The position numbers and the translations under genes are program-made. The notes under the pieces were generated by a model. It searched no databases. It was not told the origin of the DNA and worked only from the letters and a program-made list of their open reading frames with translations. A stretch of 64,000 nucleotides of DNA, taken from assembly GCA_002245135.1 (NCBI GenBank), contig NGBS01000016.1, positions 1 through 64,000 of the forward strand, in the 5' to 3' direction. The stretch comes from Proteromonas lacertae. Its lineage: Eukaryota. Positions 38,654 through 64,000 of this stretch are shown here, piece after piece; the first letter of the stretch is position 1, and each line of letters begins with the position of its first letter.

Positions 38654-41600
38654 TTATTTAATATTATAGAACTCTTTTGATAATTCTTTCTTTTCTTCTT
38701 CTGATATTCCATCTATTTTTATCCATCCAATTGTTGAAAATGTTTCTAAAAATGATTTTAATTCTGATTTGTCTATATCATCTTTTACAGTTATTGATAA
38801 CTCTATTAAACAATCAAACACTTCTTGATTTTCTTTCATTAATCTCAATTCTTCTTCACTTAATTCATTTCCTGATAGATATATCTCATTTACCATTTCA
38901 CCATAACCTTTTAATCCTTCTATTAACATTCTTAACCCTTTTTCACCCATTCCAATGTCTATTCAAATACACAATTACATTATAATCATTATATACTTGA
39001 CATGTTCAATATTAGATTAGATTTTTCATCTATATAATCTGTTTTAACAAATATCTCTAAATTTTCACATATTATTTCAATCCTTTCATCTCCAATTTCA
39101 TTATTAAATATGGAAATGTGAGTTACACGAATTGGTTCTAATTCAGTCAATTCTTTAAATCCTTTAATACTAATGTGATTATTGGATAAATCAAGTTTTT
39201 CGTAATCAATTCTTTTAATAAATGAAATATAAGAATCATTAATATTCATATCTATTTTACTATATACTAATGTTCATACTTGAAAAATCAAATACTTTTG
39301 TATAATACATTCTTCCTCTTTTTTCTATATAATAATCCAAATAATATTTCAATTCTCATTTTCTCCATAATATCCATCCCAGTAATCATATTTCAATGAT
39401 TTTGAACAAATTGATTGTAATCCTTCCATCTTAATATTATTATCATTTAAATTTATCTCAAAACATCTTCTAACTGCATCTAATTCTTTTGCTAATAATA
39501 TTATGCTTTCATCACCAATTGAGGTATTACTCAAATTCAAATCATCAAAATTTGTAATCAAATTCAAATTATCATACAATAATTTAAATCCATTATCACC
39601 AATTGGATTATCTATTAAACAATAATTATTATTAATTATAACAATGAATATATACTATGAATAAATACCTTCTCTAAATTATCATTATCTTTCATATAAT
39701 TCATCAAACACTCTATTCCATCTTCATCTATATTATTATCACTTATATCAAGATATTCTATCTTTTGATGAATATTCTTTAAACCATCCACTAGATATTT
39801 TAAGCCATTTGAAGATAATCCCATCTCTATAATACCATAAAATAACATAACTATACGTGAATAACTTGAAAAATCACATTGTAATAAATCTAAATGAGGA
39901 GTTAATATTTTCATTCCTTCATCTCCTATCTCATTTCCACATAAATAAATTGTTTTAAGATTTGATAATGAAGATAAATTGTTAATCAGTATTTCTACAC
40001 TTTTGTATGTAAGTATATTATCTAAATAACAGAAAAATATCAAATTATACTTCTCAAATCGAACTCTTCTACTTCTCCTAATTCATTTAATCTTAAAACA
40101 ATAAATGATTTGAATATATCATCATCAATTTTTGAATTATTCAGATTTAAGAAATTATAATCATTTTTGATATATTTGATTAACTCTGGAATATCTTTAT
40201 CAATCAATAATTCTTTACTTCCATTGAAATCAAACTCTATGCTTGAAATAGGAATTTTTGAGAATAAAGCTTTTAGTCCTTTAAAATGGATATTTTTGTT
40301 TTCTTTAATTGTTATTTTCTCAATATTTGGATATTTGTATAATTCTTCTGATAATAATATCATTGATTCATTGTTTAAATTCATTCCTTGGAGGTTTAAT
40401 TCATTGTCTTTGTTGATTAATAAATGTAAATACGGAAGTAAAAATTTGAAACTTTTTGAAGATTGTTTTTTCACTATTTCAAAATAAATAAGTTAAAACA
40501 ATAAATACTATCAAGTTTTACATATTTCAACTTCATGAATGGAATAGATTTCACAAATGATTCAATAAAATATGAAGTAAGATTACATTCTGTTATATCC
40601 AATCCTTCCAGATCTGATAATTGCGAAAAAAGAGATCCAAATAAAGATTGATGAAGAAAAATACAAAATTTATCACCTAATTGAAAATAGATTAAAAATA
40701 TATATACCAATTTGAATTTCTGTTGGATTAATTAATTTCATCATTCTGAAGAAATAATTCATTCCTTCTTCACAATAATGACATATATTAAATGTGCTTA
40801 TATGGATTAGATATTTGTTATAAACATCACCTTGAATGTCAAATATCATTCTATCTAAATAATTATCTTCTATTCTACATTTGTGATTAATTTGAAATTT
40901 CAGTTTATCTTTTATTGAGTAATCTCCTTTGTATATTTTCATCATTAATAATATTGATAGTATTCTTTCATTTGGTTTATTATTGTATAATTCTATCAAA
41001 ACATCTCGAATTACTTCCCATTTATTATATTGAACAAAATAATCTGCTTTAATATTAAATGATGATATTTCTATAAAATAATCATTATTAAATAACGTTT
41101 CTTTTCTATTATTTATAATTAAATAATTATCACCATCTCTTAATATTTCACTCATTTTCATCATTTCTTTTCTCACTTCTTTCAAACTCAATCTATCTTC
41201 ACTCTTCACTTTCAACATTTTTTCAATTATTTCCTTCACTAAATTATCACATTCTACATCAAAACTGTATATACATCTCAGGATGTAGTTCATTGTCTTG
41301 AACATATCATTATCTTCATTAAATGGTAATTTCTTGTTTATCATTTCATATAATATACAACCTATTGACCAAATCACACTTCTCTCATTACATTCTAAGC
41401 TATTCAACTCTTCTGGGCTTTTGTAACATATATTATATATTCTCATATCTTCTTCTTTTCTTAATTCATTCAGAAATAAATCACATAACTTTATATCACC
41501 ATCTTTTTCGTATATTATGTTTGAACTCTTAATATTTCCCACCACTAAGCCAATTTCACTTAATATCATCAAATTACTGCTTATACTGTAGATTATATTA

Positions 41601-41979
41601 CATATATCATCTTTTGACATGGATTTATTGTTTATCTTCTCTTCTAAGTCTCTAGAGTAATATTCTCTTTCCAATACCATAAATTCATTACATTCACTAA
41701 TATGAACTGTCTCAAAAAAGTAAATAAAACTCAAACAATAATTTGACAATAACGAGTTCTTCTCCAAGAATTTTAACATCTTCTTTTCTTCCAGCCCAAT
41801 GATACCTAGTATTTTTATTATCTTGATATTATCATTATGCTGTACTACTAAATCTACTTCATAATCACTCTTTTCTACTCTCTCTTTTATCTATAAAAAT
41901 AATATAGTTAAAATACTTTAGTATTAGGTGGTAACACAGAAGATAATTCATCATTCACAAAAGATTTTAAAAAATACAT
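38654..41979 (-). CDS. Predicted pseudokinase fused to ribonuclease-inhibitor-type leucine-rich repeats (about seven introns)
   Basis: Kinase fold with VGNIKSSNI replacing HRDLK, CDLF replacing DFG, YKSPEE and WSIGCILYEM. Downstream exons carry LxxLxLxxNxIGDEG repeats. Confidence 0.75.
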
Positions 41980-42169
41980 TTTCAAACTTGTTTGATGTTC
42001 CAAAATATAGAGTCGTTACAAATAAGACTAAAATGTGTTTCTGCTCTTTAATTCAAGAATAATTGCAAACAGAATATTCAATTATTTATCAATGTACGTC
42101 ATTCAATAAACAAAAACATTTAAATATAAAATATAGAATATTTACATATCAATTATTTTCACTTCCAAA

Positions 42170-43397
42170 TCAACTTAAACGAGCAGATTTTATTCTATCA
42201 AAAAATATATTAACAACATATATATATGAATATATCATACGGTGAAACAGTTGGTAACTTTTTATTATTTCTTTTTCGACCTTTAGCACTACTTATTTTT
42301 CGAGGATTATTAACTCGAGTATTGAATGATTTCGTTATAAAGGAACTATCAGTATTATAATATCCAGGACCAGGAGCGACATCTTCATATATTGAGACTT
42401 TACTAAGTGTTGTTTTCTGTTCTATCCCACCTTTTAAAAATCCATCTCTTCCCCAATATTTACTCTTTTTTACTGTCTAAATAAATAAATAAATAATAAT
42501 ATACTGGTTGATTCGGTCCTATCTTATATTCACCATAATTACGCATTACTTTTGAACTACTTTCACTTATATCATATACAGGTCCAGGACTAAAATGACA
42601 TTTATTTTCTCGACTATTTTGAATATATTTATTATTTATTATTTATTATTCATTATATTTATATACGTATGTTTCCATGATATATGTTGTAGTCTAGGAG
42701 GACGTAATGGATCTACATCTAATAATTTCTTTGTTGGTTCATTAAATCTACTTTGATTATCAAATATTGAAGCTGTTTCTGCATATACTTCAGGTTGCTT
42801 TGGATCATAAGCACCAGCACCTTTCTCATTGAGCCTTTCTCCTTTTGATAAATATCCACGATATTCACAATAGTCAAACCATTGATTTCTTGTGTCTAAT
42901 TCAGGTTTATTTCTGGCTGTTACAAATGAATGTTCAATACCTTTATCCAAGTGTTTTCCATCATATTTTGGACCTGGTGTATATCTAGACAGCCATTCCT
43001 TTTCATGACCTTTATCTATATATCTTTCATCTACTCTTTGTCCTTTATCGAGAATTGTTGAAGGAGGATTTGGTCTTGTGACACTCATACTTGGTTGGTA
43101 TTTTGAAAGAGGAGGTGCATCATTATTTACAGGCAAGTATTCCGCACTTCCTTCTCCATACACACTAAAATCACTTAACTATAGAAAACTAATTATTAGT
43201 TCAAAATACCCATTTTTCTCTTTCTTCATGATGATGATCATAATTATTGGGTTTATATGTACATAGAGCAGTTGGATCAAATGAGGCCATACGATTAATC
43301 TATCAAATTATCTATTTAAAAATACATCATATCTCGCTGGTCCAGGAGAAAAGTGTTCTACTTCAGTAAACCTGTCACTATATCCAATAATAGACAT
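42170..43397 (-). CDS. SHIPPO/PG-rich repeat protein (ODF3-like, axonemal microtubule-binding family)
   Basis: Repeated SPGPARY, TPGPKY, GAGAY, SPGPVY and APGPGYY motifs across five introns. Confidence 0.7.
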
Positions 43398-43514
43398 TTT
43401 CTCAAAAACTGAAAGCTTGTGGTTTGCTTGTCAAATGGTTTGTTTGAGTAAAAGTTTGATTAAAGCTTGTCTTTATTACAGTTTGAATTTCTATTTTTCA
43501 AATTGAGAAGAAAG

Positions 43515-43898
43515 ATGTCGAAACCAGAACCAAGCAAACCTGGTATGATTGCTGTAAACAAAACAAAAAGCAATTATTCTATCAAAAAAGATCCAACTGT
43601 CACTCAAACCTGGCATCCACTTTCTAGAGGCAGTGGATCAATTACTGATGCATCAAAAGCAGCTAGTCAAATTCTATTAAATAGAAATACATCAAAAATT
43701 GCAAAACCTAAAACAGAAATACCTATTTTGAAGAAAGAACCTAAACCAGTTCTCAAAAAAACAGTAGAAGTGAGAAAAACAAATATAGACGAATTATCAA
43801 ATATATTAAATGATGTTATTGATAATCAAAATATGTTGAATAGAAATTTGAAAAGAACCACTAAAAATGTTCATGATTATATACCTCATATGAAATGA
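43515..43898 (+). CDS. Small basic hypothetical protein (3' end uncertain)
   Basis: Open frame from ATG 43515, divergent from the SHIPPO gene. No recognisable domain. Confidence 0.5.
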   Translation: MSKPEPSKPGMIAVNKTKSNYSIKKDPTVTQTWHPLSRGSGSITDASKAASQILLNRNTSKIAKPKTEIPILKKEPKPVLKKTVEVRKTNIDELSNILNDVIDNQNMLNRNLKRTTKNVHDYIPHMK

Positions 43899-44105
43899 CT
43901 AACATAATGCATATGTGTTGAGAACAAGAAATAAAGAAAATGAAGATTAAAAGAGAAAGATGAAAGTGTATATAGATGATGAAAGTGATATTATCAGAAA
44001 ATTACCCCCCCCAAATAGAATAATAATATATATGTAATATTATATTTAATAAATAGAAATCTTAATAATAATTAACAATATCACTATATATATTTATTCA
44101 ATTTA

Positions 44106-45905
44106 TTAATGATGTTTTCTATTGGATATAGGATTCCATAATTTAGCCGTTTCTTTCATAGTGACATGTTTATTCAATGCCTTACATATTTCATCATAAG
44201 TTGGCAAACCAAATGGTACTGATGATAAATTATTCATTCCATTCACACTATTATAGTCATCGTCAGGTAATATTAACGACCTTGCAGCTGTATGTGCAAA
44301 CGGCTTCTTAGATGGAAGATTTGCAGATTTCCAATATCCTTCATGCTGTGTATCTATCATTGTAGTGGTAATAGGGATATAGGGTTTATTAAATATAAAT
44401 TTAGACTAAAAAATAAGAAATAATACTTTATAATATATACTTTTCTTGCAGATGAGGCTAATCTTGCACTTTGAGCTTTTGGACTGAGTGGTGGTTTGGG
44501 AGTCAAATTATTAGTATCTTTTTTAATAGGTGAAGTAGGAACAGAACGAGAAAAAGTCACTAATTTATCATTATTCAAATTCAATGGAGGTAATTTAACT
44601 CTTTCAGGCGAAGTATCATTCATTGTTTCTGTATTATTATTATTATTATTAGTAGTAGTTGCATTTTTATTTGTAGGAGAATGTATTGGTGAATTATTAT
44701 CAACGATATTACCATTATTGTCAAATTCATAATCTAATTGAATTTTACCTTCTTTATGTAATTTCTGTACAAATGACATGTCAACTGAGTTCTTTAAAGG
44801 ACAACATAATTCAATTCTGCTTTGAATGAAGTGCTGTCTTTCATCCCATATTGATTGTATTTTATTAATTGTCTCTGTACCTTTTGAGAGATTATTCAAC
44901 CTCTTAAAGCTGTGATCCCGAATAATAAATAATTTCACAGCAGTTTGAGCTATAACTGAATAATTTCTTAATGTCTCACAAGATAATATCGAGCCTTCAC
45001 CTATAACATTATACATTCCAATTAATGACAAATCTATATCATTTCCTTCATGAACTGACTCTTTAGGACTTTTACACACTAATTTACAATCTCCTTCCTT
45101 AATTAAACCTATATATTTACCTTTTGTACCTTCTTTAATGATAATTGCACCTCTTGGAAACTCGAGTTCTTCAAGCCAATAAGCTAAATGGTTCCATCTA
45201 TTATTACCCCAGTCACTGAATACATCAACATGTGGTAAAAACTTCAATTTTTCTTCAAAATCTAAACTTGAATTTTGATACTTTTTTACTGTTCTATCAT
45301 ACAACGGTTTATTGATCATTATTAACTCAGTATATTGTGATGCAACTGCTGAAGCTGTTCTGAACTGTTTTGGAAGTTAATAATGCGATTTCTCCAAAGG
45401 TATTTCCAGCTGAAAGTGATGTTAAAAGTTTTGATTTTATTACTGTTGCTCCAAGTTGTTTTGATGGAGCTTCTGGATCTGTATTTGCTTCTTTCTTTAT
45501 TCCGTCTAATTCTTGTCGTATTTTACCATCTACATAATGCATATGCAAATCTCTATTGATTTTGTTCATATCAGCATCATAAATATCTACACTTCCCATT
45601 AATATCACATAATATGATACACCTGTTTCGGATTGTAGGAATATTAATTCTGATGTATCATAACTTTGCAGCGTTACATATTGAGCAACATCCCACAACA
45701 CTGTTATTGGCATCTTTTCAAATATTCTACGACTTGGACGAACGTTGACATGTTCAACATCAAGTAACCACCTCGCTATAACTTTACATTCTGATTCATA
45801 TCTTTTTCCTGGAGGATGATATCTTATTATATTGCTAATCTTTTTTTCCATTGTGGAATCATCATCTGTTAAAAATTCAGATTGGCCTTCACGAGGACTT
45901 GTCAT
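44106..45905 (-). CDS. Protein with two cyclic-nucleotide-binding domains (1-nt indel near 45360; intron about 44402-44440)
   Basis: IFLQSETGVSYYVILMGSV...GNTFGEIALL...RTASAVA, and IIKEG...IKEG...IGEGSIL...RNYSVIA. Confidence 0.8.
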
Positions 45906-47158: not shown

Positions 47159-47234
47159 TCTATCAAGAGAAATAATGAAATAACACGACTGGGGTTTTGA
47201 AAACAATTTTTAGTTGCACCAAAATATTAAAAGA

Positions 47235-48380
47235 ATGAATAATCCTGGACTGTGGGAGTTTTTAGGCACTTATTGGCTTTATTTTGCTTTTGGTACATAT
47301 GCAGCAATTATGGTGATGAAATGGGTTCCATTTATTAGCCACGAAGAAAGAGATTTTTCATTTAGTATTATTACCAACAACTCATGTTATGTCAACAATG
47401 CCTATTATAGAGAGACTATTCCAAAAGTATATGATGTGATGCTGTTTAATGGAGAACTTGATTTGCTTGAAATTCGTCTTAGATTGTTAAATGAAACAGT
47501 TGATAAGTTTATATTAGTAGAAGGTTGTATTACATTTTCAGCAAAACCAAAACCATATTATTACGAAGAGAATCAACAAAGATATTCAGCATATTCTTCA
47601 AAGTATATCATATCTTCATCTGTATAATAGAATAATGTATGTAAAAGTAGGTAAAGATATTGGTTCCTATCCATTTGAAAGAGAACACAATTCTAGAGAT
47701 ATTTATTTCCTAAAAGCATTAGATGAGATACATGCTAAGTATATATATATCATTTATATCATTATTTAGACCTGATGATTTGGTTATATTTGGTGATTTA
47801 GATGAAATGCCTCATAAGCATATAATACAATATCTTCGAGATTGTAATGTGAAGAATTACCCTGTTATGTTGGGAATGCATGAATACATATACGATTTTG
47901 GATGTAGAGATGCTGATAGTTATCGTTTAAAGGTGTTAAGAAGAAGGGATTTATCATCGAAGTGCAATTCAGATGGTTCACCTGCTCATTGTCCTACTAC
48001 ATTAAGAGGTGGAGGTATGGAGAAGAAGTATGGAAGAAAAGTGACTTATTTGAAGGATAGCGCATATCATTTTTCATATTTTATGTCTTTGGATGAAATT
48101 ATCAGAAAAATTGGTAGTTATTCACATACAGATAGAGATACACCAGAAAATAAAGACAAAAGAAAGCTAAGCTGCAAAATATGTCACTGTCAGTATATAT
48201 TATTATTCTATTCAATGTACTATATATAGACATGTTAATTTATGGAATATTGGAACAAGAAAGGATGAACCAAATGTTCGTAAAGAATATGATTTTCTTA
48301 AAGAGGACCCTAGGTTTAGAAAATACTTTCCTACAAGAAAAGAGATTGTAGACACAATATGCGTCCCAAACACTTGCTAA
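47235..48380 (+). CDS. Glycosyltransferase family 17 (MGAT3/GnT-III-like)
   Basis: N-terminal TM anchor; VYDVMLFNGELDLLEIRL...VDKFILVE...TFSAKPKP; DDLVIFGDLDEMP; YHFSYF...KIGSYSH. Three introns. Confidence 0.85.
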
Positions 48381-48552: not shown

Positions 48553-50562
48553 ATGGTAGTAGTGTGTGATTATTTATTTGTAATATTTTTGTTTTCAATG
48601 TACATAAGCAGTTGTATGGGGATTAAAATAGGATATATTGTTAAAACTACTTTATCAGTAGAATTTGATTTTCTATCAGCTTACATTACTAAAATAAATG
48701 ATAATCAAAGAGAGCGAAATTGAGCTAGTTAAAATAGATAAAGCTAATGCTAATTATATGGAAACGTTACAAGATGAAGAATTATCTGTTGCCACATCGT
48801 TATGTCAAGAAAATGTGGATGATAATATGAAAATTGACCTTGTTAATAACAATGTGGTGTTATGGTGTGCAGATTTAGCAGTAGTTGGTGATTGTAGTCG
48901 AGATATGATTAATGGAATGTCAGTTACACCATCTTTAGAGCAATGTATAATTATTTTTATATTTTAATAGCCATGCACATACTTGCAACGCAATATCCTC
49001 TTAATTTTGCTATTATATTGGATGGGACATTAGAAGTAACACCATTTTACTATGAAAGAATAATTCAACTCAATAAAATTCTACAATGGCTCAGTAGTTT
49101 TTGACATTCATAATACAACATTAACTGCAGACAATTTAGCAAATTATGAAGATAAATTAAAAGAATATAAAGATAATGGAGTAACAACTATTTTATTACA
49201 CAACACAATGGATAAAATAATGGAAATATTTAATCAAAGAACAGATAAATATTTAGCTCCAAAATATCCTATGTTATTATTAGAGGGTGGATTAACATAT
49301 GCTGAAATTAGTGCTGATAGTAGATATAATAGTAATTATGATGTTGGTAATTTATATATTCGATCTTATTATTCTGAAATTAATAATGAAAAGAATACTC
49401 TTTATAAACAAATTCATAGTAGTGATCCATCTTTTGCTAGTTTAACTGAAAGTAAAGGTGCAGTTTTGTATATAGTTATTATTATTATTATTTATTATTT
49501 ATAGAACTGGTGTTGTTGATTTAATCGGTTATGCAGCTGATCATGTTCCTACAAGAAAGATATACACAATGTTTACTTATTTGTATGATAAACCGTTTGA
49601 ATTTGCTGGTGGTACTATCATTTTAAGAACTAATCATATGATGACTTCAACTCATTATATTGGTATTGTAACGAAAGATACAACTAGTGGTGATGTTAAA
49701 TTAGTATATAAACATATAATTGAACCAGATGTTACATTTGAACCAACACAATTTGAGAATGAAATTGTTGAAGTTGGTTGTAATTTTATCAATAACCCTG
49801 TAGATGGATCTTATAAACCTGATTATTTACCGATTACATTCATGTTAGACATGAGTTTATATCAATCTAAAGTAGTTTATCAATTTATAAAAATGTATTT
49901 TGATAATATCAATGCAAATAAGCCAATATTAGATAAGATATTATTCCCACTGATGTATAACATACTTGATGGATCTGAAGTAATTAATAAGAAATTATTA
50001 GAAATGATTGACAAATATGACGCTAGAACAATATTTTTAATGACTTCAGAAGAAGATAGAGTTCAGTTATACACATTTTTAAAGGGTTATGATACAGAAA
50101 TATTCTACATTGGTCCAAATGAAGCTGAGATTTGTACAAGTGATTTGATATTTGGAGATTTTGTAAATGAAGTTTATGTTGAAGAAATATATAAATATGT
50201 TAGGAATATTGGTAAAATAAGAATTGCTTTAATTGGTAGTCCAATGTCTTATGGTACTCATACAAGGACATTAATAAAAGAATATTTCAATGAACAAGGA
50301 ATGGATATAAAGATTGTATCTGAACAAAATATTCAAAAACCAACAGAATTAGAAGCAAATGTGACTGTTGATTCGTTTATTGAATTGTATGGTTTAGTGA
50401 ATGATACAGTTGTTATTATTACAGCAGAAAATGAGTATTTACCATATTTATATAAAGCATTTTATCAAAAAGGTATTAAAACTGCAAATGGTTTTACATT
50501 TATTTCATTGAATTTAGATCAATTGATTGTAGATGGAACAGGTAGTGAAAATGTATATAGAA

Positions 50563-50598
<36 letters not shown>

Positions 50599-53500
50599 GT
50601 TTAATGGAACAATGTTTATCAGCTACAGTAGTAATGAAATGAATTCACAATCATTAGATATATTCTATAAATCATTTTCTGATTTAACTGGAAAAGAAGT
50701 ACCATTTACACAAACTATTGCTTTTATTTTCAATTTAGTGTCTTTAATCACTGATGCAATATTGTCATCTTCATCTGTTTCACCTGAGTATTATAGAGAA
50801 TATTTATATCATACAATCTTAAAAGAACCTTCATATGGTAAATATGAGATATATTCGAATGGTATTGCTAGAGGTGAAATACATATGTTCCAATTAGATG
50901 AGAATAATTTAGCTGAAATTGTTTATTCACCTAATTTTATAAGTGAAAGTTATGCATTTGTGAATAAGTCTAAAACTTGTGCTTTTAGTAACGGAATAAT
51001 GAATGAAGGATATACTGATATTTATTATATTGGAATTATCTATAATTTGAATTCAAAAATAGATATTACTACTGTTGATTCGTTAAGTTTAGTTTTAGAA
51101 TTAATCAATTTAGATGGTGGTTTAAATGGAAGAATTGTATTACCAGCAACACTGAAATGGATAGTTGGAGATAATGAAGATATGAAGAAAGAAATGGAAC
51201 ATCTATTCAATACAACAAATCCATTATTTGTAGTTGGAACTGATGATGAAAATAGAAGAAAAGTATTATCTCCAATTCTAGAAAAATATGATAAATTATG
51301 TTTTTCATTGTTAATTAGTGGAGGTGAAACTGAACATCCGAATATAATTCAAATGAATGCAATTCCCAATCAATTATTTTCACTGCCATTAATGTATTTC
51401 TTACAGAAAACACAAAAATATATCATATTATATGATTCATCAGTTGATTATTCAAAGAAATTATATGATTATTTGATTCTATATGTTGAAAGTATTAAAC
51501 AGAATCCTGCCTTTGTTGTTGATGTAGAAAGTTACAAAACTTATGATAAGATTGTTGATGATATTGAGGGAATTGTAGGAAATGATGAAGCTTTTATTAT
51601 TTCATTTATTGATCAACAGACTGAACCATTTCTTACTGAATTTGATTCAAAAGGATTATCTAAAGATAAAATATCAATTATTCTAATGGATATGTCTATT
51701 AGAGTTTATTTAAATGCAAACAATTTGACTGTATTTTATGGTTGCTATTTCTTCTCATCATATTCAACAGAAGGAACTTCGTTATTAAATACTGCTTTAA
51801 TCCAAACAGTAACAAACTATAAAGGAGATCCATTGCAATTATTGGATGATGTAACAATGGCATTTTATAATTCATATTTATTTATGAAAGCAGCAATAGA
51901 AGTTAATTCAAATGATTTGAGCAGTTATACAATAAAGTCATATTTATATTCATATCCTGTTGATACACCAGTTGGACCATTGAATTTAGAAACGTCGAAT
52001 TATGTTGATATTTATCCACATATATTGTTATATTTGAATGATAGTCAACCTATTATAGCTAAAATGACTTCTGCTGTATCTCCACAAGTGTATTATAATC
52101 TATTACATAATGATCAATTTATATCAACAGATTATTCTAAGAATCCACCAGATATTCAAACAAAAATTGATTATATTGGATTAGCTTTTATGATGAATTT
52201 AAATGATCGAGTTCATTATCATGCTTATATTGATTTTGCATTAGCAATTCAAGAAATTGAGAAATATAATAGTGAGGGAGGAATAAAAAAATACAAAATC
52301 AGATATGAATTATACAATTGTCCTGCTGATGAAGAATCTGCTGCTGGTTTGTTGGTAAATATGAAAGTTAGAGGATTTACATACATAATTGGTGGTTGTG
52401 GACCAGAAACAAAAAAGTATATGAAGAATACTTTAGATTCAGTTGATATGATCTTGTTTTATACAGAATTGAACACTGGTGAAGAATGTTTAAAGAATAT
52501 AATTTATACAACACTTTCTCCATATCAAGAGATATATCCTATTGCTCTTAGATTGTTATATGAAAGAGTAACAAATCCAATATTCGTATATGAAGATTCT
52601 TCATATTTTTCATCAAGAGTAAAGTTAATAGAATCTATATTTAATGGATTTGATACAAATATAGCATATGAAATGAAAGTTGATCCTAATAACTATGAAA
52701 TCTCAATTGATGGCGAAATGGGTGAACTAAGAAACAGAATTTCAACTTCACCACATATTTTATTGTTATTACAATATGAAAGAATTGATTATTTCCTTGA
52801 AATGTTTTATAAGAAAGTATGTGATTTGAATGGAATGAGTTTAGATGATTGTATTAATACTTATTCAATTTATATTATTGATGAAAGCCAAAGTGTTTAT
52901 AATGGAGAATATGCTAGAGGAAGAACTGTTTATTCTGCCTTTATGAATGATGGTTCTGAAGATTTCTTGAAATTCTATGAAGATGCACATAATGTTGGTG
53001 GTTCAAAGTTTAATCCAAACTTTTATGATTCATTTTTAGCTATTGACACTGAATTTCTATTAGTATCAATGCAAAATGCATTATCTGTGTCATTATCAGA
53101 AATTAGAAAACAAATTTATGTAACATCCATGAATTCTGCAGTTGGTTTAGTTGAAATAGATTCAGGTAATCATGTGATTGATGCTCTATCGATTGGCTAT
53201 GTTCAGAAAGATGGAACAGTTAAATATCAAGAGACTTTGACAAAAACATGGGAAACAAATACATATAGAACTACTTTGAATATGAAGGAATATGAATATT
53301 GTGATTGGAATCCATCAACTCCTACAGAAGAACAAGGAAGTGAAAAGATACAAGAAGTTGTAAATATCGGAGTTGTTATACCAATTAGTTCATATTTTAT
53401 TGAAGAAGGTATTTCATTTATTGCTTCATTATATGCTGGTTCTATTGATATTAATAAAAATGGAGGAATAGAAGGAAAGAGATTGAATTTTATATTCTTT

Positions 53501-56500
53501 TCTGATGGAAATGATCCAGAGATAGCAGCTGATAATATGAAGAAATATATTGATGAATATGGAATAAGTGCATTTGTTGGTGGATGGACTACTGAAGTAA
53601 GAAAAAGACTAGGTGAAGTTGCTGTTGAAAAGAATGTTTATATGTTTTATCCACCTGATTATACTGGTGATGTTTGCCAATTTAATGGAATATTCTTTGG
53701 TGCTCCACCAGTTTTATATTACATTTTATATCCTTGGATTCTAGCTCATAAAATAGGTAAATTGGTTTTGATTTATTCAACGACTGAGTATTCTACAATA
53801 TTTGCTAATTCTTTACAGACTGAATTAGGTTATTATGCTACTCAATTTGATTATATTTATTCAATTCCGCCTGAAAATAGTGATGTCTCTTCTATTATAG
53901 AAATTATAAAAACTGTAGCTCCAGAAGGAGCACTTATTATCTCAATATTAGATGGTGATTCAGCAATTAATTTACTCTCACAAATGTATGATGCAGAAAT
54001 GTCATCTGAAAAATATATTGTAATGACTAGAGGTATTGTTAGAAAAAAAGTAAATGAAATTGGTATAAAAGCAGCTGGACATTATAAAATTGATTCTTTA
54101 GATTTAAATTATGATGATCAAGAAGTACAAAAAATAATTGCTAATGAAGCTGAACATTTATCAAATTATTTTACCTATTTGACTGATATTACACCAGTTA
54201 TGGCAAGAGGTTATTCAATGGTATTGTTCTTAAAGGAAGTTTTGAGACAAATGATTATCTACAATGATGATAATATTGGACATTATATTTATAATACAAC
54301 AGTATTGTCTGCTATTGGAAGTTTAGAAATAAATGAAAATAATAATGTTAGAGTTCCAATAATTATTCATCAAATGACTTATAAAAATGGTAATATTGAA
54401 TTTAAACAAACATATGAAAGCAATTTAATTCAAAGTGATCCTTATTATTCAATCTATAGAGATGATACAACAATGAAGAAATGTGAAGCTGAATATAATC
54501 GATTATTGGATGTAAAAGTAATGAAATTTGGTCTACTCTTCTCCACTACTGGTTCATTAGCTGAAGTTCATAGACCTGTGATTTATGGTGCAATTATTGC
54601 TATTCAAGAAATATTAGATGCAGGAGGTGTATTAGGAATTTTACCAGTTGTTGTATTAACTGATTATGCATCTGATGCTTCATTAATTGATGGATTAGCT
54701 GAAGATTTATTCTCTGATCCTTTAGTATCTGTCGTTATTGGATGTTATGATACTGATTGTAGAGATATATTAGAACCATATGCTAAACCATATGATGCTA
54801 TTTATTTCTATCCAAGAAAATCTGTTGGTGAACAATGTGATCGATATACTTACTACATTGGTCCAGCTCCAAATCAATATGTTGCACAGGTATTGGAATA
54901 TTTAATTACACTATCAGTCGATAAGAGTTTAGTGATGATAAGAACATCTGATGATGATGCAAATACATTATCCAGAATAGTGAAATATGAAGCTGATGGT
55001 TTATTTGTAGTTAAAGATAATATAATGATTAATACAACTAATCCAATCACAAATGATTTGATTATTCGAATTAAAGGTATGTTACCAATTGGTGGTGTTA
55101 TAATGTTAATGATAAACGATCAACAAGATTTACAGACATTTTTAAGAACTTATAATAATTTAGGAATTGATCCAACACATTATCCAATAGTTGATGTTAT
55201 GTCAGAAGTGGATCATTATGAACAGTTTGATGCTTCATTAAGAGCTAATGTCTACTTATTAAATAGTTACTTTTATGATATTAATAATGAAGCAAACGCA
55301 AATTTCTTAAAAAGATCAAAAGAGTATACAATAGTTGAAAAACCAACAGCTGGTACAAATGCAGCGTATGGTGCAGTACAATTTCTTCTACAAGCACTGA
55401 AAGATACTGGTGAAGTGAACATTACAGAGATAAGAATCAGGTTAATGACAACATCAATCACAGATGGAACAGGTGTTATTACGTTAAGTGAAGCTCATTA
55501 CCCAAATCTACCAATATTTATAGCAAAATATAACTCTGACGGAAGTGATATAAAGACAGTTTCAGAGAATTTCAATTTACAATCACCTCAAGCATGGAAT
55601 TGGGATTTAACAGAAAGTTATGGAAAGAAATGCAATTGGTTACCTGAAAAAGAGGATAGTTCCTACGATGTTAATGCTGTTAGATTAGTTTTAATTGCTA
55701 CAATCACTGGAGGATTATCTGAAGCTGCATTAGGTGCTGTTGATGCATTTAAATTAGCAACCAATGAATTGAATGGCAAAGGAGGAGTAAGAGGATATAC
55801 AATTAAACCAGAAATTGTTGATACACAATCAAATCCAGATGAATGTGTTAGTTTATTAACAAATTATGTGAATAATTATAAACCACCAGCTATATTCTTC
55901 GTAGGAAATGAAAAATGTAGAAATTCTGTGCAAAATTTATTGAAGGAAAATAATGTTATGTTATTCCATTTCTTCCAACAAAATCTAGGTTATTGTAATG
56001 AAAATGTTATGATTGCATGTCATCATATATCTTTGGATAAACCATTGATAAATGCAGTTCGAAATAGATTATATAATGAAATATTAATTATAGCTGGTGA
56101 TAGTTATTTTGAAGGAAGTGGTGAATATATCAAAACACTATTAGATGAAACAAAAGTGCCAAATACTTACTTTAGTAGTGTTGATGAAAATGTGGCAAAT
56201 AAGATTAAAGAATGGTATGATAAGAATGTTACAAATGTTGCAATTATCTACAGAGGTTTCTTTGATGGTTTTGATTTTATAGAAAAGAATTTGACATATT
56301 ATAATTTAACTGAACCAAGAGTCAGATTAATAGTAATAGAACCAACCAGTACAATTTATCTATCAGAATATAGAAATTATGAAGTGTTTGAAGCATATAG
56401 ATCAAGTGATGATTTTGAAGAGAATGATGCATTTGCAGATAAGATGAATGCAAGAATAAATAAAGCAACAACCACTGTTACTGATATTACATCAGCTTTA

Positions 56501-59500
56501 TATTCGAGTGTGTTGTTATGGGCAAATTCAGCTGAAGAATCAGATAGTTTTTTACCTTCAAAAGTAAGAGTTAAGATTAATACAGTGGTGTTTAAAAGTC
56601 CAGAAGGTGAAGTGAAATTTGGTGTTAATAATTATTTAACAAGAACAATTGCAGATTCTTATATAGATGAAAATGGTGAGAATCAATTATTACATTATAC
56701 TCAATATATGCATACTCCAGATGCATTTGGTAATGATTTAAATGGTGGTGATTATAAAATATGTAATTTTGATGATATTACAATAGAAGATGGAAGAGAA
56801 GTAAATACATATGTGATTGGTATTATTTTATCATTTACTGGAGTATTAAGAGAAAGTGAAAGTTCAGTTTTTGATGCAATTTTATCAGCTATTATCTATA
56901 TGAATAATCAAGATAAAGTATTAGGATATTATTTGAATTATAAAGTGTATGATATTGCTTCAGATCCAAACAATTATGCTATTCAATTAAAGAAAGCATT
57001 TGACACAGATGGAATAAAATATATATTTGGAGGTGTTAATCCTGATCATTATGATTATATAGCCAATTATATGAATGGAAGATCTGAATATTTCTTTTTC
57101 TGTGGTTATACTTATAGTATAACTTGTCCATCCCATGTTATATCTGCTCAATTATTACCATCTCAAATAGCTGAAAGTGCAATTAGAAAAGCGATGGAAG
57201 AAGCAACATCAATGGTTCTTATCTATTCATCAAGTAATTTAACAACAACAGTAAATGAATTTATATCATCTCGAATGGGTAATTTGAATTTGTTGTTGAT
57301 GGGTAATATTCTATATGACGATAGTTCAAATGCTCAACAAATCCAAAGATTATCAATAGCTAATAGTGGTGGTTATATAATAGCTACATTAGATTCAAAA
57401 GAGAAATATATATCATTATATAAAGATTTATGTTCATTTGGAATGCTTCCTCCAAATTGGGTTGTTTTAGCAACAATGTTTGATGAGAATATATTATATG
57501 AAGTAGATACAGAATGTTTGAATGGAAATGAAGTAATTGGATCATATTTTGAATCAGTTGGTAATTCTGAAACTAATAGTTTTTCAGTTCCATATTTATC
57601 TTCCATATTTAATGAAGAAATTCATATTAATATTGGCAGTAATAAATATATAAGATCAGAATATGAATCAGCCTATTCTTTAATGCAATATTGGAAAACA
57701 CTCATAACAGATGCTAATAGTTTTGATATATCCACTTTTGCACTGTTATATGATTATTATGTAGATACACCCTCAACATCAGTTGAATTAGAAGAGAATA
57801 ATTTCATGAAAAGAATAGTTTATAGTGGTAAAATCAACAATAGAGTAATCAGTATTAATTGGATGCCTACTTCATACATTGAGCCAATTCTGTATAATCA
57901 ATGGGAAGGAGATTTGAGAGGATATACTTGTGATTGGAATAATGAACTTAGTAATACAAGGAGACAATTGCAAGATAATGGTAATACTGGTGATAATACA
58001 AATAATAAAATTGGTCCAATGCATAACAATAATCCAATTCATGTTGCATTTATACATGAAAGTGATATTGGTACTCAAAGTGAGAAGTATAATCTATTGA
58101 TTCAGAATATAGCAATTGATGAAATTAATGATGGAAATGGTATTTTAGGTAAATTATTAATTCCAGATCATTATTTTGTAATGTCTTCCAAAGTATATTC
58201 CCAATTAAGAACAATCATATCTGACACTGAGAATTTGAAAATGATATTTGGTTGTATGTCACCTAAATGTAGAACTGAAGCAGAAAGATATTTAGAAGCC
58301 ATTAATAGTAATGTATTGTTTGATTATTTAGGAAGAGATGATGGTTTTGTATGTAGTACATATATTGTTACAACAGGATTAACAATCAATCAAAAGACAG
58401 AACCAACATTAGATTATATACATTCGATGGGATTATTAGATTTAATGGTAATAGGCAATAGTGAAAATTCAACAGTAATAATGTCTGAAGTAGTAGAAAG
58501 AGTAGCTAAAGAGAAAGGTTTTAATTTCTTAGGATCACAATTATTTTCACCATATAATCCAGTTGAATTATCAACAATTATTAATGTATTAGAAGAGATG
58601 TTTTCTAAAGCTGAAAGATTTATAATAATTGATTTATTTGCTGGAGGTGAACAAGAGAAATTCTTAACAGAATACTTCTCTGCTACTACCATAAATAGAG
58701 ATTCAATAACATTATTCTTGTTGAATTATGATGCTCATGATGTATCTTCATCAAACATTAACTCTTTATCTGGTTCATATATTGTTTCAAGTTATAATGC
58801 TGTGATAAAAAGTACAACTGCTGGAGCATTTTCAACATCAGTTCAACAGATATATCAGAATGCAATTACATTAGGTGAAATATTAGAAACAAGTTACAGT
58901 TCAATATACTTATGGAAAGCTGCAGTAGAATATGCTAAAAGTAATGGTGATTCTAATGATGAATGGCCTGATTATAGATATGTAAGATTAAGTATGAAAT
59001 ATGTGAGTTATGATGGTCCAGGTGGTACAATGACAATGCAATATAACAATCATGCAAAGAGACAAATTTACATATTTAGAATGTCAGGAACAAATCGTAT
59101 TCAAGTATTTCCAAATCAAGGAAGAGCTGCTTCATTTGATGCAAAATTGACATATATGAGTGATGAAGATTGTAACTTAGGTAAGAATATCGTTTTATAT
59201 GAGTTTAATTCTGCTTTACAATGGACTGTAATTGTATTTATGATTGTTGTAATGCTTTGTGCAATTGGTATAACAGGGATTATATTAATGTTTAAACATT
59301 CTAAAGTAATCCATAGTGCTTCACCATTATTTTTATGTTATACACTTTTAGGTGTGATTTTACTAAGTGTTAGTGGTATGATATTTACATTATATCCGAA
59401 TGATGTAGTTTGTGCAATGAGAGTATGGTGGTTAGCTTTATCAGTTGATTTCTTATTCAGTATATTGTTCTGTAAAGCATGGAGAATTCATAAATTATTC

Positions 59501-60271
59501 AATAACAAAGAAATGAAAAGGGTAAAAATTTCAAATATGATGTTAGTTAAAATTATAGCAATTATCGAATTAGTTCAAGCATTATATTTGATGATTTGGT
59601 GGTTAGTTGATAGAGCAGAATATACTGAAACTTTTAGTGTTGATTATTCCAATTATTTAGATGATTATTACATTAGAGAATGTACAGCCAATGATATATT
59701 CACTTATATCGAAATTGTTGGAGTTGTATTACTATTTTTATGGGGAGCTAAATTAGCTTGGGATACAAGAAAAGCATCATCAGAGTTTAATGAATCAATC
59801 AGTTTAGCATCCACAATTGTATTGATGATTATTTTAGGTATATTGGAAATTCCATTGAATGTATTAATGGAGAAACAACCTGATACATTGTTAATGTTAA
59901 GAGGTTTAGGTGTAGAATTAGGATCATTTGCAACTTTAATTTTACAATTTGCATCAAAGTTAACATATTTATGGGTGAATGTAGTTCAAAATAGTACAAC
60001 ATTTGGTGGATCTTCAAGTCTATCATCAGCAGCTAATTCAAAGAGATCAAGAAGTTTAGCAAGGAAAGGAGCAACTAAAGGTAGATTTGCTGTAAAACCT
60101 GATGTATTTGTTTGTGGAGATGTCGGTTTATGTACTTTATCAATGCCTGATTTGTTTTATATTGATGATCCAATGAAGTGTTCATTATCACATCGAGCTA
60201 GTAGTAGAAACAGTAGATTCAGTAGGAAAAGCAAGAATATTGATTCTTGTGTGTCTACTAGTGAAACATGA
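48553..60271 (+). CDS. Giant class C (7tm_3) GPCR-like receptor with nine tandem UrtA/AmiC-like periplasmic-binding domains
   Basis: Signal peptide MVVVCDYLFVIFLFSMYISSCMG; introns 48945-48970, 49468-49504 and 50553-50599; two 1-nt frame breaks near 48705 and 49075; nine repeats of about 380-400 aa; 7TM region with VIHSASPLFL, C.MRVW, KAWRIHKLF, W.TR...SEFNES. Confidence 0.88.
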
Positions 60272-61175: not shown

Positions 61176-61295
61176 TTAAGTGCAGGAATACCTCTATATT
61201 TTAATTATAAAAAAGTGATTCAGTTTAATGTAAAATACTATGTAATAATTACATATTTAATTATTACATAAAAATTTAAAACAATTCACATACAA

Positions 61296-62552
61296 ATGTC
61301 TGATGTTAACGAGATTTATTCAAAGGATTTTGCATTTTTACCTTATATAAATGATGAGAAAAAGAAGGTTGTAAACTCACTGCCTAGAGATTTTAAAGAT
61401 GCTCTTCATTCTTGTATTTCAACATGTAGTAAATTGGTGAAACCCGGGGAAAGCTGTTACGAGTGTAGTTGTTTCCCAGAAAAGTATCAAATCATGTGTA
61501 AGTTTTGCTTCGAGTCTCAGTTAGGTAGACACGAAGGGCATGATTATAAAATATTATTTTTAGAGGATGGTGGAAGTTGTGATTGCTCAGAAATATCTGG
61601 AAGCCACTGTAAAATCTGTTCTAGATCAATACCTTTTAAGTTTACAAGAGATATTAAAAGATATTATGAAAGTGTAATAAATGTATTTGTAGATTTTATT
61701 AAGAAGATACTAGTCCATTCCCACCACTTAATTCCAAAGAATGATACATATTGCCTTGTAATACTATACAACAGCTGTGAACCGCCAGTTGATATGGAGG
61801 TAATATTGAAGAAACTAAACAGTAGACATACCTATCAAGATGTTTACAATAAAATTGACCAAATGATACAATCAGGTCAAATGCGTATATGCAAAGAAGA
61901 AACTGATAGGGAATATACTATGGATAAAGCAGCTAGATTATTTTCAAGCTATCAATTTTACAGTTTAACCAATGAAGATATAATCAACAATCAAAGAATT
62001 AGAAAAGAGTTAAAAGAAATTCTACCGCTATTAAAATACAAGGAAGTGCATGATGAAGTGAATAGAATATTGAAAGCCTATCATGTGATGCCATTTTTTA
62101 ATTACTGTAAAAAAAATTCCAGTTTAAACAATGAAAGTGATTTTATACAATATGCAAATCAGAATTCTGACTACTGCAATTATTTGAATTTCTTACTATT
62201 TAATATATTAAGAATATTGCCTTTGGATAGTGAAATATTGTACGAATTGTTTATAATTCTATTGGATGATGAAGATAATAAGATAATTATTGGAAATAAT
62301 TTAGTGGAAAATTATATGAACAATATTGATTATTATTTAAGTGGATATGGAGATATATTGAAACTAAATCAAATAACAACACTTGTTTTTAGTGATAATA
62401 ATGTAATTATGAAATTAAATCATCCATTTATTCAATTATTTGAATTAGTAGTTGAGTTTCAAAAGAGATATGACACTATCGAACCAGGAGAAGTGCATGT
62501 GCCTTATAAAAGAAGAGATGCTTATCAAACGGTAATCAAACAATATTTCATG

Positions 62553-62592
<40 letters not shown>

Positions 62593-64000
62593 ATAGTAAT
62601 ATCAATATGTTGATGGATTTACCTGATGTGATAAGTAATTATAATCCTGATGATGTTTTATGCAGAATATTAGATACAATCGATTTATTAATGAAAGATA
62701 AAGTTGTTGGCGATAATCATTTAATGGTAAAAAGGGAATTAATCAGTCATATATCAACAGATATTGTGAATTTATCTCAAGGACCATTATTTCGTGTTAA
62801 TTTATATACAATAATAACCAGATTATGTATATTAATAAATAAATAAATATATTATAATAAATAGATAAATTATTTCAACCAAATTGTTTATACAATTTTC
62901 ATAATTTAGATATGATTATTCAGAGGATAATGTGTGATAATAAACGCTTAATTGTAGAATGTTATAACAATCAAGATATTCATGGTGAAAATGGATATTT
63001 GATGTTTTTATTTGAACATTTATTTGGTTCAATATTATTTACTATGAGTATTAATGAATTGAACAGTTGTTATTCTGATTTATTGAATACTTATGGTGAA
63101 ACTTTGATTTATAATGAAGAAGAGAAAATTATATCCACTAAAAATGATGGTAATAATAATTATATAGTGACAAATTTTACATCAACTGATTTTGATTCTT
63201 TTGGTTTAATAGAAACTGAAGATGTTGATAATCTATTTGATAATATGAATATACCTTTAAGTGAAGTTGATAGAAAGAGAATAATGCCAATAAAAACAGT
63301 ACCAACAACATTATTTGGATGTTTGAGATATTTCGTATATATATATATATATTATTATTATTATTATAAATAGTTAACTATTGTTCAACACAAGTCTAAT
63401 TTGTGGGTTAAAAATGGTTTAATGTTTACAGCTAAACTAAAGTCATGTTCTTCACCATTAAGTTATGAGTTAATGTGTCATTATTTACAGTTTATGATAT
63501 CTTTTACAGATAGTGAAAAAATATTGAAATTATTAGAGGAAATGTTTAATATTTATACAGTAAAACACAATTATTTAAATCAAAAAGATGTGAATTTGAA
63601 TTATTATAACGAATTTTTAACATTTGTTTTGACATTAATAACAAATCCATTACCTTTGAATAATGAAGACAATGATGATATATTTAATGAATATTTGAAA
63701 GTTGATATAATCCATTTATTATTGGAAAGAAAATATACTTTTAATGATATTGTTACAGTAATAAGCGATAAATATTATTATGTACCAGTTGATGAGCTTA
63801 GGGATAGAATAATTTCTCAAATAGATATTGTGTCAAATTATGATAAAATAGAAGGCTTTTATTATTTGAATAAAGAATATAATTATTATTACAATCCATT
63901 CTATTTAAGTTATAATTCCAATCAGAATTTGGTTGATGCTAATTCTATTTTTTCTGATCATACCGACTTTAAACCTTTTCCTCTTTTATATACTAATAAC
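61296..64000 (+). CDS. UBR-box (N-recognin) E3 ligase-like protein, divergent UBR1/2 type; runs off the window end
   Basis: CSKLVKPGESCYECSC...MCKFCF...HEGHDY...GGSCDC is a UBR zinc finger. A later exon has LWVKNG, resembling the UBR1 W.RNG motif. Confidence 0.75.

Follow-up and report, generated by a model that had tools for sequence, protein, structure and literature searches.

A giant GABA-B-like receptor gene with serial UrtA/AmiC-family flytrap modules in Proteromonas lacertae

A stretch of 64,000 nucleotides of Proteromonas lacertae DNA (contig NGBS01000016.1, positions 1 to 64,000; hereafter the window) contains, at 48553-60271 on the + strand, a receptor gene with an unusual extracellular region. 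In the reading that we consider fairly probable, the locus is one gene encoding a giant, GABA-B-like G-protein-coupled receptor (GPCR) of class C, in which nine clamshell-shaped modules (flytraps, R1 to R9) of the UrtA/AmiC family stand head to tail before the seven-transmembrane (7TM) domain, and the product is likely a chemoreceptor whose ligands are not urea. The architecture is real and, in the literature that our search covered, a new variant of the class C GPCRs. Receptors of this class are taken to work by one flytrap per subunit, and the models of their activation rest on that geometry; six to nine flytraps in series, in a conserved family, raise the question of how, or whether, binding events far from the membrane reach the 7TM domain. 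The gene further shows a solute-binding module of bacterial type, that of UrtA, taken over and amplified on a eukaryotic GPCR, at least in this lineage; in a second lineage, where the urea pocket is intact, the same probably happened independently.

The gene begins with an ATG at 48553 and is dominated by its last exon, an unbroken frame of 3223 codons (50600-60271, +; about 9.7 kb) in DNA of 26-29% GC. Tiny, AT-rich introns join the upstream pieces to this frame. One of 47 nucleotides (50553-50599) is placed by reading phase and by homology to module 2 of a relative, P0019 (described below), that continues across it. Another, of 37 nucleotides (49468-49504), is placed by its phase and its form, and just 3' of it the match to P0019 begins. 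A third intron of 26 nucleotides (48945-48970), which follows the same pattern as the other two, is probable. Positions 48553-60271 form one gene with three tiny introns, the third of them with that qualification. The window as a whole is eukaryotic DNA of 22-33% GC and reads with the standard code. Introns throughout the window are about 26-47 nucleotides long, almost pure A+T, and of the form GTA...TAG (e.g. 25480-25516, 30680-30712, 63335-63373, and 23237-23270). Several long frames in the window are split by one in-frame TAG, which is the end of such an intron of about 33-39 nucleotides; these single TAGs between long frames resemble stop-codon reassignment but are intron ends instead.

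The layout of the product is given in Table 1. When the main exon was searched as a whole with Pfam, it returned Peripla_BP_5 with 534.6 bits in 8 stretches, Peripla_BP_6 with 420 bits, and 7tm_3 with 132 bits; when the modules were scored singly, R3 to R9 each exceeded the Peripla_BP_5 cut-off of 27 bits. The first exon of R2 alone fell below it (21.2 bits), and the spliced module was recognized by a family profile that we built from 16 full modules of the multi-flytrap receptor family. The pieces of R1 have no Pfam match, and even with the family profile the first half gave nothing and the second half only a weak match. Nevertheless, we would argue that R1 is a real module, because it pairs with the first module of P0019, keeps both of the cysteines discussed below, and has the right length. 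The module count is therefore seven firm (R3-R9), one firm by family profile only (R2), and one degenerate (R1).

Table 1 Layout of the receptor gene at 48553-60271.
Feature	Position	Strand	Basis
Start codon and hydrophobic signal-like peptide, 23 residues	48553..48621	+	Read from translation
R1, degenerate flytrap; two frame breaks, likely 26-nt intron, 37-nt intron	48622..49823	+	Family profile positions 158-351, 13.4 bits
R2, split by 47-nt intron 50553-50599	49824..51013	+	Family profile positions 18-380, 71 bits (spliced)
R3	51017..52162	+	Peripla_BP_5 67.6 bits; family profile 334 bits
R4	52169..53341	+	Peripla_BP_5 61.2 bits; family profile 369 bits
R5	53354..54502	+	Peripla_BP_6 94.0, Peripla_BP_5 89.0, ANF_receptor 28.2 bits
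R6, most UrtA-like module	54515..55672	+	Peripla_BP_5 147.4 bits; UrtA 7s6e E 7.3e-21
R7	55676..56803	+	Peripla_BP_5 71.6 bits; family profile 395 bits
R8	56804..57970	+	Peripla_BP_5 76.8 bits; family profile 408 bits
Asn-rich spacer, ~20 residues, between R8 and R9	57971-58033	+	Translation
R9, membrane-proximal, best-conserved flytrap	58034..59191	+	Peripla_BP_5 90.4 bits; UrtA 8hic E 2e-13
7TM domain, class C, GABA-B-like	59204..59959	+	7tm_3 137.4 bits vs cut-off 33.5
Ser/Arg-rich cytoplasmic tail, ~100 residues, and stop codon	59960..60271	+	Translation

A preliminary description of this DNA, made from the letters alone, had proposed that a signal peptide is followed by nine flytraps in tandem and then by a 7TM domain of class C, and this layout is borne out by Pfam, the family profile, and the hydrophobic segments. 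The profile places the starts of R3 to R9 (Table 1) within a few bases of those first proposed, and the motifs quoted for repeats 5 and 6 are present in the translation. The expectation that Pfam would recognize every repeat holds for R3 to R9 and for a single 7tm_3 domain, and fails for R2, whose first exon alone is below the cut-off, and for R1, whose pieces have no match. By the family profile, no other gene in the window contains such modules. R2 to R8 abut without linkers, the Asn-rich stretch between R8 and R9 being the sole spacer. About 15 residues separate the end of R9 from the first transmembrane segment (TM1); no cysteine-rich domain lies between them, and Pfam gave no NCD3G match.

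Both by sequence and by predicted fold, bacterial UrtA is the closest match of the modules; AmiC comes second, and the flytraps of class C receptors are far behind. In Pfam, Peripla_BP_5 scores above ANF_receptor throughout R3 to R9; the latter family was found in R5 and in R4 (13.6 bits), with no match in the other modules at E ≤ 1. Among sequences of the PDB, the best match of R5 is UrtA (7s6f, E 3.7e-22), and R6 matches AmiC (1pea, E 5e-15) in addition to the UrtA listed in Table 1. After UrtA, the ranking for R5, R6, and R9 continues with the urea-binding protein of Caldicellulosiruptor (8tg1) and AmiC; none of the matches at E ≤ 0.01 is a class C flytrap. A tblastn search of plasmids with R6 returned 207 records; all annotated genes under the matches listed are urtA, and the two whose surroundings we read both adjoin urtB.

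An AlphaFold2 model of R6-R7, computed from a 16-row alignment (predicted local distance difference test, pLDDT, 89.0; predicted template modelling score, pTM, 0.83), is free of stretches below pLDDT 50 where the two modules meet. Its best fold match is UrtA (7s6f, 7s6e, and 8hic; TM-score on the target 0.88, root mean square deviation 2.9 Å), followed by 8tg1 (0.87), AmiC (0.85), LivJ-type proteins (~0.8), and the GABA-B flytrap 4mr7 (0.66). The C-terminal tail of UrtA is common to the modules, and a pair of cysteines, one in a 'GExC' turn and one in the tail, occurs in eight of the nine (R1, R2, and R4-R9). R3 and its counterpart P0019_m3 lack the two cysteines at once, the pattern that a disulfide would give. 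The preliminary assignment of the repeats to the UrtA/AmiC type (Peripla_BP_5) rather than to ANF_receptor is thus upheld by the Pfam ranking of R3-R9, by the PDB matches of R5, R6, and R9, and by the fold of R6-R7; R3 to R9 are not better matched by eukaryotic ANF_receptor flytraps, and the C-terminus is 7tm_3 in Pfam.

The main-exon product has seven hydrophobic segments, all of them within residues 2877-3115, and none comparable upstream. The sequence of this region is closest to GABA-B2 (E 2.5e-15; range for GABA-B2 and GABA-B1 2.5e-15 to 1e-13), and the metabotropic glutamate receptors (mGluRs) are farther away (1e-8), which agrees with the GABA-B/mGluR-type 7tm_3 class first assigned to it. 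The stretch 'K.WR.H..F.N' at TM3 and intracellular loop 2 (ICL2) and the 'W(D/E)TR' at the base of TM6 are conserved with respect to GABA-B2. The residues for activation and coupling in class C, as listed in the accessible part of a GPCR survey (PMC3727952), are a Lys and an Arg at TM3/ICL2, an acidic residue at the TM6 base, and a PK motif in TM7; the first three have their counterparts in the alignment with GABA-B2, and TM7 reads SK instead of PK. In an AlphaFold2 model of R9 together with the 7TM domain (pLDDT 76.7, pTM 0.65) the helices are visible, and the best matches are full-length GABA-B chains (E ~1e-24), with a global TM-score of ~0.38 that is low from the differing orientation of the domains. 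The 7TM domain belongs to class C, in the GABA-B-like branch, with a flytrap directly before TM1 and no cysteine-rich domain.

The gene is one member of a family. At E ≤ 1e-3, a full HMMER scan with R9 and the 7TM domain retrieved 4005 proteins; 26 of them stay within E ≤ 1e-30. Among the best 150 representatives, 28 hold 2-9 full family modules, mostly together with 7tm_3, 2 hold one module, and 120 hold none, these last being 7TM-only matches. Pfam detected 7tm_3 in 16 out of 21 long representatives (truncated and below the cut-off in two of these), and 14 of the 16 show 2-9 Peripla_BP_5 stretches; the 5 without 7tm_3 stop inside or just past a module. All 10 clusters that we looked up come from Logan assemblies and carry no protein name. 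The architecture, which the preliminary description could not place among described receptors, is not unique: it is that of an unannotated family present in public assemblies. The clusters that come nearest in a protein atlas are 7tm_3 receptors with a single flytrap, most of them from diatoms; these serve as leads only.

The layout is the same in P0019, whose contig-derived frame runs through a signal peptide and nine modules before it stops. The predicted proteins of P0019 and of a further relative, P0003, both run out in a read-through rich in Tyr and Ile that starts at one and the same point of module 9 (after '...NS'), which suggests that they possess an intron there which the window gene lacks. 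R3 to R9 have diverged strongly from one another, with a BLASTP match in only 6 of the 21 possible pairs, at 19-26% identity. Compared with the modules at the same position in P0003, they show identities of 53, 37, 38, 55, 61, 63, and 73%, respectively, and same-position matches also occur in P0019 (27-41%), P0004, and P0002. R9 is the module with the highest identity to its counterpart in each of P0003, P0019, P0004, and P0002 (73, 41, 42, and 38%, respectively), and in all four relatives identity rises toward the membrane, with dips. The 7TM domain is 49-52% identical to those of the relatives.

A quick IQ-TREE phylogeny of the modules, with support from the SH-like approximate likelihood ratio test (SH-aLRT) only and with heterogeneous composition, gave the same picture. 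R1 to R8 pair with modules m1 to m8 of P0019 (SH-aLRT 95-100; 97 for R1 and 100 for R2), R9 pairs with P0004_m6 (100), and the groups of R6 to R9 take in, with the order unchanged, modules of the shorter relatives P0010, P0011, and P0013. By these comparisons the window gene belongs to a family of receptors with 6-9 modules whose order is conserved by position, and because this holds position by position across relatives, the array is old in this lineage.

The tree also separates a second group. P0005, a protein of 3745 aa from a GC-richer organism, carries 7tm_3 and nine UrtA modules (2937 bits summed on Peripla_BP_5), and these nine cluster with bacterial UrtA, apart from the window family (SH-aLRT 100, subject to the caveat on composition). 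Its giant relatives are P0303 (4080 aa), P0304 (3909 aa; automatically named 'urea transport system substrate-binding protein'), and P0305. This second array probably arose separately.

The urea pocket distinguishes P0005 from the window gene. In Prochlorococcus UrtA, as described in the accessible part of PMC10392092, urea is surrounded by W120, S122, Y141, Q144, E146, Y190, F192, N246, and S274; eight of these nine are strictly conserved, and several mutations weaken or abolish binding, among them those of Q144 and N246. We read the corresponding columns from an alignment of 54 modules that includes two bacterial UrtAs. All nine contact residues are kept in both bacterial UrtAs and in 6 of the 9 modules of P0005, which may hence be regarded as a candidate eukaryotic urea-sensing GPCR, and its group as candidate eukaryotic urea receptors. 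No more than about three of the nine positions are kept in any of R1-R9, and the full set of W120, S122, Y141, Q144, E146, Y190, N246, and S274 occurs in none of them. The best of the window modules is R5, with about three (the W, a Y, and an aromatic residue at position 192); R6 keeps Y141 and N246, with which the HMMER alignments to PDB sequences concur. Q144 is kept in R7 only and N246 in R6 (and in the degenerate R1), and the other two hydrogen-bonding residues, S122 and Y190, in no window module. Given these counts, and because the pocket columns are no more conserved than the background (see below), a canonical urea pocket in the window modules is excluded at the level of sequence. The urea or short-amide ligand put forward in the preliminary description is accordingly not supported, and the likeness to AmiC is one of overall sequence and fold only.

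How such a protein might work can be proposed by analogy with GABA-B. R9, the best-conserved and membrane-proximal module, would pass a signal of closure or re-orientation to the 7TM domain, as the single flytrap of GABA-B does. The absence of linkers from R2 to R8, together with the confident packing of the two-module model (pTM 0.83), suggests that the distal modules form a fairly stiff rod, and this rod could add ligand sites or modulate R9. The output would pass through a heterotrimeric G protein.

Several points weigh against the chemoreceptor reading. The columns of the UrtA pocket are no better conserved than the background when modules of the same position are compared among four relatives: the invariant pocket columns for R3-R9 number 0/1, 1/7, 0/4, 1/7, 0/8, 1/9, and 2/7, respectively, with 7-26% of all columns invariant. 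Because the pocket columns are not specially conserved, the binding of a small molecule in the cleft is not established for any module. In addition, TM7 has SK where class C receptors, including GABA-B2, have PK; the transcription of 48553-60271 as one unit is a prediction from genomic sequence; and G-protein coupling, dimerization, and the relay of a signal along the chain are all things that we infer. Finally, two frame breaks in R1, if they are real, would stop translation after 56 residues.

The same lack of preferential conservation in the pocket would be expected if the distal modules were a structural stalk, or an adhesion or spacer rod, made of degenerate clamshells, with only R9 or no module at all sensing a ligand. 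This alternative, which we hold to be unlikely but worth serious consideration, is favored by the drop in conservation with distance from the membrane, to the point that R1 and R2 are barely recognizable, by the tight and linkerless packing of the modules, and by the conservation of the structural cysteine pair. However, each position in the array has preserved a character of its own in distant relatives, something not required of a simple spacer, and the bilobed fold with an open cleft is predicted to be retained, at high model confidence.

At the opposite extreme, the receptor could be a multi-input GPCR, in which each of the nine clamshells recognizes a cue of its own and the stiff rod integrates them into one 7TM and G-protein output, with the family descending from, or running parallel to, urea-sensing multi-UrtA GPCRs such as P0005. 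We regard this as rather unlikely; to our knowledge, no GPCR is known to signal by such a logic. As the modules are small, well folding, and separately expressible, questions about their ligands are directly testable.

The chemoreceptor reading also presupposes that the gene is functional, which brings us to R1. The two breaks, both of the +1 type, are located at ~48698-48720 and ~49064-49085, with no space for an intron at either. Both could be removed by longer introns, at 48658-48712 (with a GAG acceptor) and 48945-49094, but stop-free paths through R1 need introns of 55-67 and 150 nucleotides, as against the 26-47 nucleotides of the GTA...TAG introns elsewhere in the window, and coding-like sequence would be deleted; we did not adopt this solution, which may nonetheless hold, because of the atypical length and that loss. 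We also considered, and rejected, programmed +1 frameshifting at the TGA codons closing frames A and C: at the second break, a weak collinearity with P0019 already starts upstream of the TGA. Behind the breaks could be a local error in the assembly, splicing of an unusual kind, or a lesion acquired recently; in short, the N-terminal module R1 is decaying or mis-assembled.

If both breaks are real, the gene would be a recently inactivated pseudogene and no receptor would be made in this strain, which we judge improbable. That two breaks fall within about 400 bp, without an intron-sized gap, favors this explanation, as does their confinement to the 0.9-kb region of R1 while the 9.7 kb downstream are clean: R1 contains 22 of the 159 A/T runs of at least 4, so that, were homopolymer errors spread uniformly, both breaks would fall in this region with p ~0.02. 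The nearby NMD3 gene, moreover, is intact. On the other hand, an open frame of 3223 codons at ~27% GC cannot last long without selection, module 1 of P0019 is intact and in frame with the rest, and the longer introns just mentioned would, at their cost in coding-like sequence, remove both breaks.

A multi-site sensor for urea or short amides, in which nine modules bind as UrtA and AmiC do and thereby provide avidity or a graded response, is very improbable. It draws on the nearness of the modules to UrtA and AmiC in sequence and fold and on P0005, whose intact pocket implies that a urea-sensing form of the architecture probably exists; against it stand the few urea contacts of the window modules, in which Q144 and N246 are rare and S122 and Y190 are gone. 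That several adjacent genes, for secreted binding proteins and a short GPCR, have been misread as one can be practically dismissed, as 9.7 kb spanning seven boundaries between modules and the 7TM domain contain no stop, and relatives from other organisms show the same continuous frames.

The neighbors of the receptor gene in the window (a DEAD-box helicase, a phospholipase B, NMD3, a kinase, and a cyclic-nucleotide-binding protein) are all ordinary eukaryotic genes. Directly upstream is a two-exon gene for a glycosyltransferase of the GT17 family (MGAT3-like; 47214-48229, +), and about 1 kb downstream a gene for a UBR-box, UBR1-like E3 ligase (61272-64000, +) runs off the window. NMD3 has one gap of ~35 nucleotides between two exons and is otherwise intact; its identity to any listed relative is 44-56%, the named ones being from oomycetes, fungi, plants, and red algae. 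A signal recognition particle (SRP) RNA at 27754-28037 (+) matches the Rfam family Plant_SRP over its full length, with 113.7 bits against a gathering threshold of 105; within the SRP clan this model scored best. A protein kinase domain (40673-41890) shares its strand with a cyclic-nucleotide-binding domain (44357-45376), and the two may belong to one cGMP/cAMP-dependent kinase gene (40673-45376, -).

Bacterial tandem-flytrap sensors such as BvgS/EvgS and CdgH are built from type-II PBPb domains. In the portions of the literature that our search covered, the only tandem flytraps were those of the BvgS/EvgS histidine kinases, CdgH, and the receptor adenylate cyclases of Trypanosoma brucei. According to these partial sources, such proteins resemble the window receptor in placing serial clamshells before a membrane signalling domain, and differ from it in having two modules rather than nine and a kinase or cyclase output rather than a GPCR. 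We found no multi-flytrap GPCR in the accessible text of published work, including the GPCR surveys PMC10445921, PMC12716839, PMC3971589, PMC3727952, PMC9960496, and PMC5168858, whose supplementary architecture tables or figures could hold one. The class C repertoires of dictyostelids, ciliates, and gut fungi, as far as presented in the accessible parts of PMC10445921, PMC9960496, and PMC5168858, were considered as a home for the window receptor, which does not fit them.

Among bacterial proteins, UrtA of the UrtABCDE transporter (PDB 8HIC, 7S6E, and 7S6F) is the best match in sequence and fold, and shares the C-terminal tail and the cysteine pair; its urea-contact residues are not kept in the window modules. 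UrtA is a free periplasmic protein encoded beside urtBCDE, whereas the window modules are serially fused to a 7TM domain in an intron-bearing eukaryotic gene without a transporter partner. AmiC of Pseudomonas aeruginosa (PDB 1PEA and 1QNL) belongs to the same Pfam family and to the second-best group of structural matches and, like the window modules, is a binding protein for signalling and not for transport, but AmiC is soluble, consists of one domain, and acts on AmiR, and the likeness lies in overall sequence and fold.

Among receptors, GABA-B is the closest in 7tm_3 and, like the window receptor, has a type-I periplasmic-binding-protein flytrap joined to TM1 with no cysteine-rich domain. 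It has one ANF_receptor flytrap in place of nine UrtA/AmiC (Peripla_BP_5) flytraps and PK in place of SK in TM7, and we detected no coiled-coil tail in the window receptor. The architecture as a whole is shared with P0005, P0303, and P0304, which combine about nine Peripla_BP_5 modules with 7tm_3 as the window receptor does, but which come from GC-richer organisms and have modules that group with bacterial UrtA and not with the window family, subject to the same caveat on composition.

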